Position numbers and translations under genes: made by a program
Shown here: piece by piece, positions 2,642-8,091 of the stretch
Numbering within the stretch: position 1 is the stretch's first letter
Layout of the letters: each line of letters starts with the position of its first letter
The notes under the pieces: generated by a model
The model's database searches: none
Told to the model about the DNA's origin: nothing
What the model saw: only the letters and a program-made list of their open reading frames with translations
From: Deferribacteraceae bacterium
GTDB lineage: Bacteria > Chrysiogenota > Deferribacteres > Deferribacterales > JAISNW01
Length of the DNA stretch: 18,354 nucleotides
Reading direction: 5' to 3'
Assembly (NCBI GenBank): GCA_031278965.1
Contig: JAITJJ010000017.1
Location: forward strand, 1-18,354

Positions 2642-3472
2642 TTATCTAAAGTTTTCATTCATGCTGCCCATGCGGTAGCCTTGCAAATCCAGGGATACAT
2701 AGGTAAAGCCGAGGGCTTTAAATTTGGAAACCACTTTATCTCTGACGGCGCTCTCTGTTAAAACGGCAAAACCGTTTTCATCGGTCTCTATACGCGCCGT
2801 GTCCCTATGGCAGCGCACCCTCACTTGACGCACCCCTAAATCAAATATATATTGCTCCGCCGCCTCCACTTTGGAGAGCGCCTCCGTTGTGATTCTCTCC
2901 CCGTAGGGGAAACGGGACGCGAGGCAGGCAAAAGCGGGTTTATCCCAAGTGGAGAGGTTAAGTTGGCGGGAGAGCCGGCGGATTTCACCTTTTGTGAGCC
3001 CCGCCGCCTTCAGCGGACTAAGTATTCCGTCTTCCTTAACCGCTTCAAGACCCGGTCTATAGTCCAAGATATCGTCCGCATTGGAGCCTTCGGCGATATC
3101 TGTTATGCAGAGTTCCTCCGCCGCACTCCTAACCTTTGCAAAGAGGGCTTTTTTGCAAAGATAGCACCTGTTGTGCGGGTTATCGGCAAAGTTTCCTTCA
3201 TGCAACTCTTCTGTGCGGATGAGTATATGCTCCACCCCTTGTTCCCTGCAAAAAGATTGCGCCGCCTCAACTTCCCGCTCCGGAAAGAGAAGCGAGCGGG
3301 CTGTAATTGCCACTACCCTTCCGCCAATGGCACCCTTTGCGATTTTAAGGAGGAAGGCGGAATCTGTTCCGCCGGAAAATGCCACTGCCAGAGTTGGGAG
3401 GGTTTTTAAGAAGTCCGTCAGCGTTTTAAGTTTATCTGCCTCACCCGGCGCACTTATAATTACCCGCCGCAT
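2642..3472 (-). CDS. LarE-family PP-loop ATP pyrophosphatase (TIGR00268-type sulfur transferase). It carries a CxxC + Cys triad, suggesting a [4Fe-4S]-dependent, non-sacrificial type.
   Basis: 276 aa. PP-loop AFSGGTDS near the N-terminus. The DYRPGL, SRFPYG, VRVRCHRDTARIE and LGFTYVSLDLQGYRMGSMN blocks align along the full length with the Lactobacillus plantarum LarE sequence as I recall it. Cys103-x-x-Cys106 (CYLCK) plus Cys183 (FACLASRFPYG). Its start overlaps the ThiS stop by 13 nt. Confidence 0.85.
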   Translation of the reverse strand: MRRVIISAPGEADKLKTLTDFLKTLPTLAVAFSGGTDSAFLLKIAKGAIGGRVVAITARSLLFPEREVEAAQSFCREQGVEHILIRTEELHEGNFADNPHNRCYLCKKALFAKVRSAAEELCITDIAEGSNADDILDYRPGLEAVKEDGILSPLKAAGLTKGEIRRLSRQLNLSTWDKPAFACLASRFPYGERITTEALSKVEAAEQYIFDLGVRQVRVRCHRDTARIETDENGFAVLTESAVRDKVVSKFKALGFTYVSLDLQGYRMGSMNENFR

Positions 3473-3657
3473 ACGAAATTTACTATTTCCACAGTATCAG
3501 AGTCTTTTATATAAACCGTTCCAAAAGAATCTTTAGGCAGTATCTCCCCGTTCAGTTCCACCGCAACCGTATCTCTATTGATATTTCTCTCTTCCAAAAA
3601 TACCGCGACAGTTAAAGGTTCGCTTATATGAAAGTATTCTCCGTTAATCTGCGCCAT
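3460..3657 (-). CDS. thiS: ThiS/MoaD-family sulfur carrier protein, 65 aa, C-terminal Gly-Gly.
   Basis: Ubiquitin-like small protein ending ...VEIVNFVCGG. Pattern G.TV..LLE.........VAVELNGEI.P......T.I.D.D.VEIV.FV.GG matches ThiS. The symbol denotes the family only; the biological role here is uncertain. Confidence 0.75.
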   Translation of the reverse strand: MAQINGEYFHISEPLTVAVFLEERNINRDTVAVELNGEILPKDSFGTVYIKDSDTVEIVNFVCGG

Positions 3658-3660
3658 AAT

Positions 3661-4815
3661 TCACCTTAAGGCCTGTTCAAGATCGCTTAAAAGATCATCA
3701 GATGCTTCAAGACCCACGGAAAGGCGGAGAAATCTGTCATTTATCCCCAGTTTTTCAAGGAGTTCTTCCCCCATATCCGCATGGGTTTGGAGTTTTGGAA
3801 AGGTGATAAGCGATTCCGTTCCTCCCAGGCTTTCCGCAAAACTAAATACCTTTACCTTTTCAAGAACTTTAGGAAGAGCTTCCGCTCTTTTAAGCTCAAA
3901 GGAAACAATTGCCCCCGCTGACTTGGATTGGGCGGCAAGGAGAGAATAACCCGGAGCGTCTTTTAAACCGGGGTAATACACCTTAGCCACCGCAGTATGC
4001 CCTGTCAGATATTCCGCTATCTTCCGAGAGTTTTCCGTCTGACGCTCCATCCGCACCGAGAGACTTTTCAGGCTTCTTAGGAGCAACCAGGATTCAAACG
4101 GATTTAGAACCGCCCCCGCCGCATTCTGGATATATTTTAATTTTTCGGCTACCACCGCATCCTTGGCCGCCGCAAAACCTGCCAGAAGATCGTTATGCCC
4201 GCCCAAATATTTTGTGGCGCTGTAGACGGATATGTCCGCCCCCAATTCTATCGGGCAGAGATTGACGGAGGTAAGAAAAGTGTTGTCTATTATAAGTTTG
4301 GCGCTATTTTTATGGGCAAGCGCTGATAGATAGGGGATATCGCATACTTTTAAGAGTGGGTTGGTAGGAATCTCCGCGAAGATCGCCGAAAAAGGTTTTG
4401 CACCCTTTTCCTCCATAACTTTTTTGTCGGAAGTGTCCGCATAATCCGTCTCAATATGGGGGAAAAAGTTTTCCAATAAACGGAAAGTGCCGCCATAAAG
4501 ATCCTCCGATATAATAAGCCTCTCTCTTTTTGCTAAAGATTTATTGTCAGGGGGTTGAAAGAGTGCACGGAAAACCGCATCAAGCGCCGCCAAACCGCTG
4601 GAAAAAGCGTATGCTCCTGATGCCTGTTCCAGTTTTGCAAACAACTCCTCCAGAACAAAGCGAGTGGGGTTTGAAGTTCTTGTATAGTCATAGCCGGTGC
4701 TTTTGCCCAGAGCCGGATGTTTATATACCGCACTCTGATATAACGGCATACTAACCGCGCCAGTTCTGTAATCCCAACCGGAACCCGCCTGTGCCAATAG
4801 GGTTTCTGTGTCCAT
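3661..4815 (-). CDS. Cys/Met-metabolism PLP-dependent enzyme (cystathionine gamma-synthase / beta-lyase / O-acylhomoserine sulfhydrylase family).
   Basis: 384 aa. The blocks YTRTSNPTR, SGLAA, DNTF and the PLP-lysine motif SATKYLGGHNDLLAG align end to end with the E. coli MetB sequence as I recall it. It stops 3 nt before the ThiS start. Confidence 0.9.
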   Translation of the reverse strand: MDTETLLAQAGSGWDYRTGAVSMPLYQSAVYKHPALGKSTGYDYTRTSNPTRFVLEELFAKLEQASGAYAFSSGLAALDAVFRALFQPPDNKSLAKRERLIISEDLYGGTFRLLENFFPHIETDYADTSDKKVMEEKGAKPFSAIFAEIPTNPLLKVCDIPYLSALAHKNSAKLIIDNTFLTSVNLCPIELGADISVYSATKYLGGHNDLLAGFAAAKDAVVAEKLKYIQNAAGAVLNPFESWLLLRSLKSLSVRMERQTENSRKIAEYLTGHTAVAKVYYPGLKDAPGYSLLAAQSKSAGAIVSFELKRAEALPKVLEKVKVFSFAESLGGTESLITFPKLQTHADMGEELLEKLGINDRFLRLSVGLEASDDLLSDLEQALR

Positions 4816-4853
4816 AATCCCGCCGAAAGTATAAAGTATATATAGTCACTAGG

Positions 4854-4882
4854 ATATTATTTGAAATAGGAGAAAAAAGCAA
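4854..4882 (-). promoter_or_regulatory. Putative sigma70-type promoter for the PLP-enzyme/thiS/larE-like operon. On the minus strand it reads TTGCTT - 17 nt - TAATAT.
   Basis: Read by eye in the 95-bp gap upstream of the ATG at 4815. It leaves a leader of ~30-35 nt, too short for a SAM riboswitch or T-box. Confidence 0.35.
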
Positions 4883-4910
4883 TATGCTAATGGGGATACT
4901 GGGGATAAAA

Positions 4911-5623
4911 TTAAGGTTTTCTCACCCATAGGATTCTTTCAAACCCATAGAAGCTCCAAGTATAGGAGTGCACCCGTTTTAACAGCACTGAATACGGCTC
5001 AAACAGCAACCCTATCAACCAAGCTATGGGCGGTTTATAAAATTTTGATTCAAAAATAAGATCACATCCTTCATCACGAATTATTTTTTTAAGTTTCTCA
5101 AGATCTGGAGGGGTTCCGGTATCTGTTTTGTCGTCATAATAATTCAGAGTTCCACGTCGGCTTGGGAAATGGATACTTTTTTCAGACGGACATGAAAAAT
5201 AGAGCAAACCGCTTTTTTAAGCGCTTTAAGTATATTTATGAATGTTTTTCCCCTTTCAAAGCAGTGCTCCAAGTTATGGGCGGATATGACCACGTCAAAG
5301 CGATCTGCCATCTCCCCTATCTTATCGGCAAAAGCTGAAGGTGTAACGATTATAAATTCATCCAATATCAAACTACTCATATTGTAAATTCCCACGTCAA
5401 GCCTTGTATAATGGAAACTGGGTATGGCTCTTTTAACAGTTAATATCGCATCGTTACCACACCCTACATCCAAAATGGAAGGTTTCTGGAAAAGCTCTGA
5501 TACATGGTAGAGAAAAGACGCCCTCCCATGGGGTTTCACAATTTTTGCAAGTATTTTGCGCACTGCACGGGCTCCTTTTAACCGGAACATAGGATTTCTA
5601 TCTCCACTCCCCGTAGAAATCAA
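4911..5623 (-). pseudogene. Class I SAM-dependent methyltransferase split into two overlapping ORFs (5144..5623 and 4911..5207) by a frameshift in a homopolymer run.
   Basis: LDVGCGND (SAM motif I) and DVVISAHNLEH in the 5' ORF. The 3' ORF continues the fold (LYFSCPSEKS). Adding one A to the coding-strand A6 run (plus-strand T6 at 5213-5218) restores ...ILKALKKSGLLYFSCP... Confidence 0.6.
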
Positions 5624-6215
5624 GTTTAATCTCTTGTTTGCCCCAATTCATGGCAGCGGATTTGGGGCGACTTTTTTCCCAAACATACTTGGTAATCGTT
5701 CTAGGGCGGATAATGGTGGCAATATTCATAGAATTATCGGTGATTAGAGTTAGATCACCTTTCTGAAATACGGAGAGCCCCCCCAAAGTGCTGTAACCGT
5801 AAGTCGGATCCGGCAGCGGCGGCGGAAATGTCAGGGCGGAGTTCATAAGCCGCACCTCCCTCGCCCCTATAATCTGAGCAAGGTCGGATGTGATATCCTC
5901 TTCCCCCTTTATCGCCCTATACTTACCATTTTTTAGGGTGACTTCCGCTACAACCGCCCCGAAGAGCCCCAACACTTTAAGCTCAAGATCACCTCTGCAA
6001 TTCTTTTTCAATAAGCCGCTGAAACGCTGTTCATCGCCTTCAGCGGTATAGGAGATACGAACCTTGCCGCTATATTCGCATAAGGAAAGAGATTTTTCGC
6101 GAACCGCTCTCAGCGCCTCATCTTTGCTGACAGGCACCCTGTAAATTCCTGCACTGCGCCCCGCGCACCCAGCAAGAAACAAGAACACTAAAAAAAATAA
6201 GAGGAGTCTATGCAC
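5598..6215 (-). CDS. Lipoprotein, possibly a LolB/LolA-like beta-barrel fold.
   Basis: Signal peptide with lipobox (LFLAGC), 205 aa. Its start overlaps the TPR gene stop by 1 nt, and its 3' end overlaps the methyltransferase start by 26 nt. The fold guess comes only from the alternating hydrophobic beta pattern. Confidence 0.55.
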   Translation of the reverse strand: MHRLLLFFLVFLFLAGCAGRSAGIYRVPVSKDEALRAVREKSLSLCEYSGKVRISYTAEGDEQRFSGLLKKNCRGDLELKVLGLFGAVVAEVTLKNGKYRAIKGEEDITSDLAQIIGAREVRLMNSALTFPPPLPDPTYGYSTLGGLSVFQKGDLTLITDNSMNIATIIRPRTITKYVWEKSRPKSAAMNWGKQEIKLDFYGEWR

Positions 6216-7798: not shown

Positions 7799-7847
7799 AA
7801 AAAATACCTATATAATCAGCGCTCAGATCGCCTTTAACAAAGGCAAA
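7788..7847. repeat. Direct repeat copy A. It is a degenerate duplicate of the last ~20 codons of accC (4-bp deletion, 2 substitutions) fused to the TPR gene start codon.
   Basis: Hand alignment. 7788-7847 (aactttttcataaaaaatacctatataatcagcgctcagatcgcctttaacaaaggcaaa) versus 8028-8091 (aactttttcataaaaaatacctatCTATataatcGgTgctcagatcgcctttaacaaaggcaaa). Confidence 0.8.
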
Positions 7848-8027
7848 TACTGCCCGAAAAAGTGCAATAACAAATGGTGAGCGAAAGCGGATTTACTCCG
7901 CTGCAACGAACCTGAATCGCTAGCTGAGCGTGAGCGAAGCGAATTATGCGACGAAGCGAGCAGCGAACGAGATTGCCATATCGGGGGATAGGTAGAAAGG
8001 TAACCTGTCCCCTTTCTGAACACTATT
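7848..8027. other. ~180-bp unique insert between the direct repeats. It is rich in GAGCGA(A)GCG motifs and has no credible ORF.
   Basis: The only ORF (7823..8038, 71 aa) is low-complexity S/R/L-rich and begins inside the duplicated repeat. The sequence holds several short hairpins. Confidence 0.5.
7984..8017 (+). terminator. Intrinsic-terminator-like hairpin on the plus strand: GGGGA-t-AGGT-agaaaggta-ACCT-g-TCCCC followed by TTTCT.
   Basis: Read by eye. A 9-bp interrupted GC-rich stem with a T-rich tail. No co-directional plus-strand gene is upstream, so the function is unclear. Confidence 0.25.
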
Positions 8028-8091
8028 AACTTTTTCATAAAAAATACCTATCTATATAATCGGTGCTCAGATCGCCTTTAACAAAGGCAAA
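8028..8091. repeat. Direct repeat copy B, the authentic accC 3' end.
   Basis: Encodes the accC C-terminus ...[18 protein letters not shown]. Confidence 0.8.

Follow-up and report, generated by a model that had tools for sequence, protein, structure and literature searches.

A larE gene overlapping thiS downstream of a trans-sulfuration enzyme gene in a Deferribacteraceae bacterium: a candidate local sulfur supply for LarE

[quoted passage not shown] Elsewhere in sulfur metabolism, protein-thiocarboxylate-dependent sulfhydrylases are established in Wolinella (HcyS/MetY) and in M. tuberculosis (CysO/CysM). In the T. maritima LarE, LarE(Tm), cysteines C92, C95 and C172 ligate the cluster, and the third of these is described as shifted by one residue relative to Cys176 of the L. 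plantarum enzyme (PMC9283937). Sulfur was delivered to Fe-S LarE in vitro by E. coli IscS with cysteine but not by Na2S, the cysteine desulfurase genes of T. maritima are reported to lie distant from larE, and TtuA/TtuB has been named in the LarE literature as a mechanistic precedent (PMC9283937). Homologues of LarA are found in 80-100% of Deferribacterota species, and the homologue from D. desulfuricans has already been characterised (PMC11770544); an NPN-making LarE is therefore expected in the lineage examined here. Our literature search found no description of a LarE system with ThiS or with a cystathionine-type enzyme.

The window that we analysed is one complete 18.3-kb MAG contig from a Deferribacteraceae bacterium. 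Three genes are packed together on its minus strand, encoding a Cys/Met-metabolism PLP enzyme of 384 residues (3661-4815), a ThiS sulfur-carrier protein of 65 residues (3460-3657) and a [4Fe-4S]-type LarE of 276 residues (2642-3472). The 3-nt gap between the PLP gene and thiS and the 13-nt overlap between thiS and larE, both given in the initial annotation, were exact when the ORFs and junctions were checked. The PLP gene ends in AAGGTGA, a Shine-Dalgarno sequence for thiS embedded in the 3' end of its neighbor, and the thiS ATG follows three bases on. The larE ATG, at 3472, lies inside the final 13 nt of thiS. The short gap with its internal Shine-Dalgarno sequence and the overlap argue for co-translation of the three genes, and suggest that stoichiometric co-expression has been selected.

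An AT-rich intergenic region of 95 nt (4816-4910, minus strand) upstream of the PLP gene presumably contains the operon promoter. Upstream of the operon, no riboswitch or other leader element reached the Rfam gathering threshold, and a promoter and terminator scan returned matches at the chance level seen with shuffled sequence. Downstream on the same strand, the gene for the branched-chain amino-acid aminotransferase IlvE (1475-2542; NF009897, 441.7 bits, cutoff 307) starts 99 nt after larE. The scan, whose matches overall are at chance level, gave no convincing terminator in this interval; ilvE is possibly co-transcribed with the trio, and its membership of the unit is uncertain. A second, independent assembly (L001, from Logan SRR14710901) has the PLP enzyme, ThiS, LarE and IlvE in the same order, which rules out a mis-assembly. 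A horizontal-island origin of the trio was also considered and rejected, as its GC content is no different from that of the remaining contig.

The full-length LarE homologue proposed from the initial annotation was well supported. The protein scored 319.7 bits against TIGR00268 (equivalog cutoff 150) across profile positions 2-259 of 259, its PDB matches were LarE (5udq and 6b2o, E 1e-45) and a homologue from M. maripaludis (8cnz), and the motifs SGGTDS, DYRPGL and SRFPYG were all found. Its PP-loop runs from S33 to S38 (S33-G-G-T-D-S38). In our LarE alignment, A1, the SGGxDS motif is invariant outside the x position, which is T36 in the window LarE and valine in at least 90% of the sequences. 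The three cysteines of the CxxC-C motif, C103, C106 and C183, match the cluster-ligating cysteines of 8cnz one for one in the alignment, and C183 falls one residue off L. plantarum Cys176, just as in LarE(Tm). Residues S186, R218 and R220 align to L. plantarum Ser180, Arg212 and Arg214, which bind the phosphate of P2CMN, and are invariant in A1. Judged by these residues, the window protein is a genuine iron-sulfur-type LarE. Similar to the [4Fe-4S] enzymes of T. maritima and M. maripaludis, it scores above the family cutoff and carries SGGxDS, the tri-Cys motif and the Ser/Arg/Arg set. It differs from them in its genetic setting, as the translational coupling of larE here is to thiS and the gene of a trans-sulfuration PLP enzyme and not to larB/larC.

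The carrier was likewise as first described, a 65-residue ThiS with a C-terminal GG. It ends in VCGG, passes the TIGR01683 cutoff (67.5 bits, cutoff 37.45) and matches PF02597 with 43 bits, and its PDB matches are the thiamine ThiS structures 2k5p and 1tyg. Since it scores as the thiamine-type equivalog, the protein may simply be the thiamine carrier. Its length, its GG end and its structural matches are those of the ThiS from ThiFSGH thiamine-thiazole systems; however, the window thiS has no thiF, thiG, thiH or thiO nearby. A word-based search for ThiS relatives returned a single one. The closest relative, P0122 (68% identity), is also an orphan, located beside the gene for HU.

The PLP enzyme matched PF01053 over its full length (407 bits, profile positions 1-380 of 381), and the PLP-lysine motif SATKYLGGHND could be read directly in its sequence, in agreement with the MetB/MetC/MetZ-type assignment made at the outset. 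All 43 of the NCBIfam models that it matched scored below their own cutoffs, the best being PRK07671 (398.8 bits, cutoff 594). No equivalog was reached, and the profiles therefore do not fix whether the reaction is that of a CGL, CGS, CBL or MetY. The top PDB match was 7d7o, a bifunctional CGL/homocysteine desulfhydrase (334 bits), and the score against the MetY model TIGR01326 was 248 bits relative to a cutoff of 495. On these matches the protein appears to be a trans-sulfuration family member, nearest to the MccB-type cystathionine gamma-lyase/homocysteine desulfhydrases and the MetI-type cystathionine gamma-synthases. The best NCBIfam and PDB matches are those expected for MccB (YrhB) of the ubiG-mccBA and mccAB operons, and relatives of the window enzyme commonly adjoin a PALP (mccA-like) gene. 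This was their commonest neighbor (31 of 80 relatives), as is usual for ordinary reverse trans-sulfuration. Directly upstream of the window PLP gene is a SAM-methyltransferase-like gene, an order that we take to resemble ubiG-mccBA. The window differs from those operons in lacking mccA and in its upstream methyltransferase gene, which appears frameshifted; its PLP enzyme also stays under the equivalog cutoff.

The initial annotation had further proposed that the trio forms a self-contained module that operates without an E1 enzyme. Profile searches of the window ORFs gave no ThiF/MoeB (PF00899), JAMM, ThiG/H or LarA/B/C, the same outcome as originally noted. As the window is one MAG contig, the absence of a gene there says nothing about the genome, and the E1-free description holds for these 18 kb only. 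The proposed triad was also not conserved, an outcome that the initial annotation had itself named as refuting its proposal. The closest LarE relatives (71-72% identity) are encoded after atpBE, after rlmE or beside tatA, the nearest PLP-enzyme relatives (74-83% identity) are all solitary, and neither LarE nor ThiS was a neighbor of any of the 80 PLP-enzyme relatives. Since the nearest relatives of all three genes (68-83% identity, including the ThiS relative) are solitary and in unrelated contexts, the triad is lineage-specific.

We surveyed the neighborhoods of 81 LarE loci, which had larB/larC nearby in 39 cases and not in 42. Sulfur-mobilising genes, a set that includes Cys/Met PLP enzymes, ThiF-family E1s, IscS-MnmA, rhodanese and Rrf2, were present within 8 kb at 21 of the 42 loci without larB/larC compared with 0 of the 39 loci with them (Fisher p = 4e-8). 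The top Pfam families within two genes of LarE at the non-larBC loci were Cys_Met_Meta_PP (8) and ThiF (7), followed by Aminotran_5 (5, which may include secondary Cys/Met PLP matches), Rrf2, MnmA, NIL, HTS, PALP and Rhodanese. A Cys/Met PLP gene is directly adjacent to larE in seven loci. At L019, L038, L039 and L040, the gene right after larE encodes an MccB-like PLP enzyme, and at L019 a SAM riboswitch (91 bits) is located directly upstream of the larE-PLP pair. MetY directly precedes larE at L021 and L028, with larE embedded in metY-larE-cysK-metA at L021. Genomes with larE in a sulfur context include those of Petroclostridium sp. X23 (NZ_CP124862), Ruminiclostridium papyrosolvens C7, Tepidibacter mesophilus and Alkalithermobacter paradoxus. 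The recurrence of larE beside Cys/Met PLP enzymes, E1s and sulfur-relay genes provides comparative support for the shared sulfur-flow logic first suggested for the trio. Long LarE homologues were also inspected as Rosetta-stone fusions, and none was a fusion to ThiS or an E1; P0004 is an internal duplication, P0033 has a spurious N-terminal extension, and P0097 retains the remnant of a Cys/Met PLP gene at its C-terminus.

ThiS was encoded near LarE in two of the 81 loci, the window and L018. At L018, the genes for a TcdA-like protein and a MoeB-type E1 stand in a row between larE and thiS, and the locus combines the E1 and ThiS with MetY. The one comparable ThiS and LarE cluster thus carries an E1, contrary to the E1-free module, which overall is not supported. 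MoeB-type E1s are found beside larE at L014, L018 and L028, which implies that the E1 is not replaced. Because the window LarE retains the canonical PP-loop, CxxC-C and P2CMN-binding residues, the proposal that it adenylates and sulfurates the ThiS C-terminus as an E1 substitute is unlikely. These residues (PP-loop, CxxC-C, Ser186 and Arg218/220) are invariant in A1 in LarEs from both larBC and sulfur contexts. A distinct LarE subfamily for the sulfur contexts was rejected, as the neighbor-joining tree contains no separate clade, and in a per-column test no alignment column separated the larBC-context from the sulfur-context LarEs.

We tentatively favor the interpretation that the trio forms an operon of ordinary sulfur genes, translationally coupled and confined to one lineage, in which a bona fide LarE is encoded beside its sulfur suppliers. 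The operon is probably a local way to feed LarE sulfur, not a new carrier-activating system. The PLP gene and thiS most likely precede larE because both supply sulfur to LarE. In such a scheme, cysteine, homocysteine or cystathionine would be the source from which the MccB-like enzyme frees sulfide or persulfide. An E1 of the ThiF/MoeB type, encoded at another place in the genome, would adenylate ThiS, whose C-terminal thiocarboxylate may then deliver sulfur to the open iron site of LarE, similar to the role of TtuB for TtuA. We infer both the direction of the sulfur flow and a direct contact between ThiS and LarE. Two of the readings offered initially remain plausible, namely recharging of the LarE-like enzyme by a putative ThiS-COSH, and a putative PLP C-S lyase that mobilises cysteine sulfur for ThiS and LarE.

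At the level of the genes, the locus resembles the Thermus thermophilus TtuA/TtuB system in that the gene for a three-Cys [4Fe-4S] PP-loop ATPase adjoins that for a GG-ending ubiquitin-fold carrier. The systems differ in that the LarE substrate is a pyridinium dicarboxylate mononucleotide and not tRNA, that the carrier-enzyme pairing of the window is not conserved (2/81 LarE loci), and that the window encodes no TtuC-like E1. The lack of conservation of the triad, with its rare ThiS-LarE proximity, the mccA-like neighbors of the PLP-enzyme relatives, the thiamine-type score of ThiS and the lack of an E1, larB or larC within the 18-kb contig also count against the sulfur-supply interpretation.

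It is possible, with somewhat less confidence, that the three genes are co-transcribed without biochemical coupling. The operon would then consist of an ordinary Met/Cys PLP enzyme, a thiamine ThiS and an NPN LarE joined by rearrangement in a family whose gene order is very fluid, with at most a shared sulfur-responsive regulation. This is consistent with the solitary near relatives and differing contexts of each gene, the ThiS score above the thiamine equivalog cutoff, the mccA-like gene as the commonest neighbor of PLP-enzyme relatives, the scarcity of ThiS-LarE pairs and the housekeeping ilvE gene that directly follows larE. However, uncoupled co-transcription does not readily account for the sulfur-relay genes beside larE, which are enriched far above chance in independent lineages and in different orders, for the seven loci with a directly adjacent Cys/Met PLP gene, or for the start/stop overlap and embedded Shine-Dalgarno sequence with the selected co-expression that they suggest.

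We consider it improbable that the LarEs of sulfur operons serve sulfur assimilation independently of NPN, either making ThiS thiocarboxylate or activating sulfide for homocysteine/cysteine synthesis. The mutual exclusion of larBC and sulfur contexts would fit such a role, as would the metY-larE-cysK-metA cluster, the larE-PLP pair behind a SAM riboswitch and the window without an E1. Yet the sulfur-context LarEs have neither a sequence signature nor a clade of their own, the P2CMN phosphate-binding residues are kept, bona fide MoeB-type E1s adjoin larE at three loci, and LarA homologues are near-universal in Deferribacterota (PMC11770544). In those genomes, larB/larC may also sit elsewhere.

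Least probable is that ThiS-COSH donates sulfide to the adjacent PLP enzyme with LarE as a bystander, for which the 3-nt spacing of a PLP C-S enzyme gene and a GG-terminated carrier gene, the established HcyS/HcyF/HcyD/MetY (Wolinella) and CysO/CysM (Mycobacterium) systems with the same adjacency, and the co-occurrence of E1, ThiS and MetY at L018 offer some precedent, but the window enzyme is of the MccB/CGS subfamily and not MetY or CysM, neither an E1 nor a JAMM protease is encoded in the window, none of the 80 PLP-enzyme relatives has a ThiS neighbor, and the carrier resembles the short ThiS of thiamine synthesis and not the MoaD/CysO type.

A broader reading, which we consider unlikely but worth stating, is that Fe-S LarEs in Met/Cys and sulfur-relay operons constitute an unrecognised sulfur-trafficking route. 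In one version, carrier thiocarboxylates or the persulfide of a PLP lyase would physiologically recharge the [4Fe-4S] cluster of LarE; in a more radical version, NPN-independent LarEs would activate either sulfide or ThiS for the synthesis of sulfur amino acids. If either is true, no other genomic feature would point as directly to a partnership of ThiS and LarE as the thiS-larE overlap. The case also shows the risk of inferring an "E1-less" module when only a short MAG contig is at hand. The translational coupling of thiS to larE nominates concrete, testable candidates for the in vivo sulfur donor of the widespread Fe-S LarE. So does the placement of half of the larBC-unlinked larE genes close to genes of sulfur relay or Met/Cys metabolism, in one case downstream of a SAM riboswitch.

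The three genes lie on the minus strand in the order PLP enzyme (3661-4815, 384 aa, PF01053), ThiS (3460-3657, 65 aa, TIGR01683) and LarE (2642-3472, 276 aa, TIGR00268), the window being an entire contig (18,354 bp) from a MAG annotated as 'Deferribacteraceae bacterium'. Reading of the ORFs and junctions confirmed the 3-nt gap and 13-nt overlap described in the initial annotation, and profile searches upheld the three protein identities. The PLP gene ends in ...GCC TTA AGG TGA with the thiS ATG three bases on, and the closing AAGGTGA forms the Shine-Dalgarno sequence for thiS. The thiS gene ends in GTA TGC GGC GGG TAA (VCGG*), and the larE ATG falls within it. This overlap is probably real, since the N-termini of aligned LarE relatives are similar in length to that of the window protein and the sequence ahead of the conserved region offers no other canonical start. 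The order PLP, ThiS, LarE, IlvE was also present on L001, a short, independently assembled Logan contig. The trio does not differ in GC content from the remainder of the contig and thus shows no mark of a foreign island.

The other genes of the window, which are housekeeping or unannotated, encode IlvE, a split methyltransferase, TPR proteins, AccB/AccC, EF-P, an Xaa-Pro peptidase, MetG, PSP1 and a Band-7 protein. As previously stated, and with the 18,354-bp window as the scope, profile searches of these remaining genes detected no E1 (ThiF/MoeB-type adenylyltransferase), JAMM protease, ThiG/H or LarA/B/C; the missing E1 of the module is an artefact produced by the short contig. Immediately upstream of the PLP gene lies a class-I SAM methyltransferase-like gene (4911-5623, minus strand) that is split into two overlapping ORFs, one (5144-5623, minus) with a weak Methyltransf_23 match under the Pfam cutoff and the other (4911-5207, minus) with no match; a frameshift or pseudogene, or an assembly error, is probable. 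We take the succession of methyltransferase and MccB-like gene to resemble the clostridial ubiG-mccBA operon. Positions 1-1400 are low in GC (0.33-0.36 versus about 0.46 elsewhere) and include a truncated PD-(D/E)XK (PDDEXK_2) transposase-like ORF (150-557, minus), possibly a mobile-element remnant at the contig end. Three further minus-strand ORFs, 7823-8038 (71 aa), 5598-6215 (205 aa) and 900-1238 (112 aa), gave no Pfam or NCBIfam match; the start of the 71-aa ORF overlaps the accC stop by 4 nt.

LarE scored 319.7 bits on TIGR00268 (cutoff 150). Upon alignment to solved structures, its NRC103YLC106KK segment matched the CxxC of the M. maripaludis homologue 8cnz, and C183 in FACLASRFPYG matched the third cysteine. 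By contrast, L. plantarum LarE has no cysteine at the two CxxC positions, and its sacrificial Cys176 lies one residue upstream of C183. [4Fe-4S]-dependent LarE is marked by CxxC-C with a one-residue shift, as in T. maritima C92/C95/C172 (Chatterjee et al., PMC9283937), which is exactly the arrangement of C103/C106/C183. The phosphate of the LarE substrate P2CMN is bound by Ser180, Arg212 and Arg214 (PMC9283937), corresponding to S186, R218 and R220 in the window protein. An alignment mixing LarEs encoded near larB/larC with those encoded near sulfur-metabolism genes showed no variation at these residues, at the cysteines or in the PP-loop outside its variable x position. Judged by sequence, the window protein is of the catalytic iron-sulfur type, not the sacrificial Lactobacillus type, and it is canonical in every feature open to testing. 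LarA homologues are present in 80-100% of Deferribacterota species; one, from Deferribacter desulfuricans, has been characterised (PMC11770544). On the simplest reading, this protein is the organism's LarE for nickel-pincer nucleotide (NPN) biosynthesis.

The PLP enzyme, a member of the trans-sulfuration family, scored 407 bits on PF01053 with the whole model covered. Its best matches were MccB-type bifunctional cystathionine gamma-lyase/homocysteine desulfhydrase (PRK07671; PDB 7d7o) and MetI-type enzymes; it fell below every equivalog cutoff in the profile search, so these matches do not fix its reaction. ThiS scored 67.5 bits on TIGR01683 (cutoff 37.45) and is of the short thiamine type.

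We then considered 80 LarE loci from species-representative genomes (47-56% identity), in which genes were called and clustered and recurrent clusters annotated. LarB (AIRC) and/or LarC (Ni_insertion), often with NikR or HypA, lay within 8 kb in 39 of 81 loci. Sulfur-metabolism genes lay within 8 kb at 21 of the 42 loci without larBC versus none of the 39 with it (Fisher p = 4e-8); the two contexts do not overlap in the 81 loci. A Pfam scan of the 148 genes within two genes of LarE at non-larBC loci recovered Cys_Met_Meta_PP (8 genes), ThiF and ABC_tran (7 each), Aminotran_5 (5, which may include secondary matches from Cys/Met PLP enzymes), Rrf2 (4), MnmA and NIL (3 each), and HTS, PALP and Rhodanese (2 each). 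IscS-like genes appeared in only two LarE loci in a targeted search, and true ThiS near LarE in only the window and L018 among the 81.

Several loci illustrate this linkage. An MccB-like PLP gene follows larE with gaps of 0-29 nt in L019, L038, L039 and L040; L038 and L040 carry a SorC regulator, rhodanese, nitroreductase, larE, the PLP gene and ligT. Other arrangements are rrf2 then metY-larE-cysK-metA (L021), metY-larE-moeB-like-hydE (L028), cysK-iscS-mnmA-larE (L056) and metA, cysE, larE, tcdA-like, moeB-like, thiS, nifX-like, rrf2, metY (L018). In L019 the larE-PLP pair comes right after a SAM riboswitch (RF00162, 91 bits). The LarE homologue P0097 (L003 10001-10948) ends in a tail of ~40 aa matching the C-termini of Cys/Met PLP enzymes (…IRLSIGTEHIDDIIYDLNQALEV). 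The tail looks like a relic left when a downstream PLP gene was deleted and joined in frame to larE, marking a larE-PLP operon that has decayed. Riboswitch and relic point the same way as the linkage of larE to sulfur genes.

Other neighbours were also observed. In L014 (7980-10922) and L028 (1404-4371), the genes after larE encode a MoeB/UbaA-type E1 and then a HydE-type radical-SAM maturase (TIGR03956, 516 bits); both clusters adjoin metY, and a SAM riboswitch precedes the metY of L014. Nitrogenase-like genes (Oxidored_nitro, Nitro_FeMo-Co, radical SAM) occur in the sulfur-amino-acid neighbourhoods of larE in L019 (12079-14893, with a SAM riboswitch ahead of them) and L003 (5500-8750). In the related Bacillota loci L007, L009, L010, L011 and L013, larE comes after a DNA topoisomerase gene, near an Rrf2-family regulator (directly adjacent and divergent in L009, L011 and L013) and a MetN-type methionine ABC transporter ATPase (ABC+NIL).

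Published biochemistry left open the in vivo sulfur donor of iron-sulfur LarE; in vitro, IscS with cysteine works and sulfide does not, and TtuA/TtuB was cited as a precedent (PMC9283937). Given how larE recurs beside sulfur-mobilising genes, the best explanation, which we hold tentatively and at a little short of an even chance, is that the window is one variant of LarE placed beside its sulfur supply, an MccB-like C-S lyase and possibly a ThiS shuttle. The lyase would provide sulfide or persulfide, and ThiS might act as a TtuB-like shuttle charged by an E1 encoded elsewhere, roles that correspond to two of the three readings offered in the initial annotation; the specific step from ThiS to LarE is itself unlikely, if credible. 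The earlier suggestion that LarE replaces the E1 is unlikely, given its canonical features and the MoeB-type E1s beside larE in L014, L018 and L028.

The main rival, a serious possibility though on balance doubtful, is that the trio is no more than co-transcribed, in a lineage whose gene order is very fluid, and that ThiS works in thiamine synthesis. The initial annotation had made its module depend on conservation of the triad in related genomes, and the triad was not conserved, since tblastn of every window protein against all of the relatives' loci recovered only the single expected gene in each. The LarE relatives P0003 (71% identity), P0002 (72%) and P0004 (about 51-60%, local tblastn) follow atpB-atpE, follow an rlmE-like methyltransferase and adjoin tatA, respectively. 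The only ThiS relative found, P0122 (68%), is an orphan gene adjoining HU in another Deferribacteraceae MAG, and four PLP relatives from the same metagenome series (74-83%) are solitary. Of the 80 metagenomic relatives closest to the PLP enzyme, none had LarE or ThiS nearby and 31 had a PALP neighbour. In the Deferribacteraceae-like loci L002, L085 and L167, solitary larE, thiS and PLP genes lie near shared landmarks in differing combinations (atpB-atpE then larE; atpB-atpE, HU, then PLP; thiS then HU), which suggests one chromosomal region repeatedly rearranged locally. P0004 (L004 2455-3570) is a 371-aa homologue with an internal tandem duplication of ~95 residues (GFTKAEIRQLS…ARIEV, present twice), either an assembly artefact or a real duplication.

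A more radical and improbable alternative is that LarEs in sulfur contexts serve sulfur assimilation independently of NPN. Such a role is suggested by the strict separation of sulfur contexts from larBC contexts and by the embedding of larE in metY/cysK/metA operons, but the sequences give no support: sulfur-context LarEs form no clade of their own and carry no diagnostic residues. Least likely, and very improbable, is that ThiS serves the PLP enzyme in the manner of HcyS/CysO.

A literature search found no paper on a linkage of LarE with ThiS or with trans-sulfuration, and LarE appears in a 2026 survey among the sulfur-using genes near Thi4, ThiS and ThiF. The trio is not a categorically new system and is best filed as an iron-sulfur PP-loop sulfur insertase accompanied by candidates for dedicated donors. 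It is valuable as a lead toward the physiological sulfur donor of [4Fe-4S] LarE.
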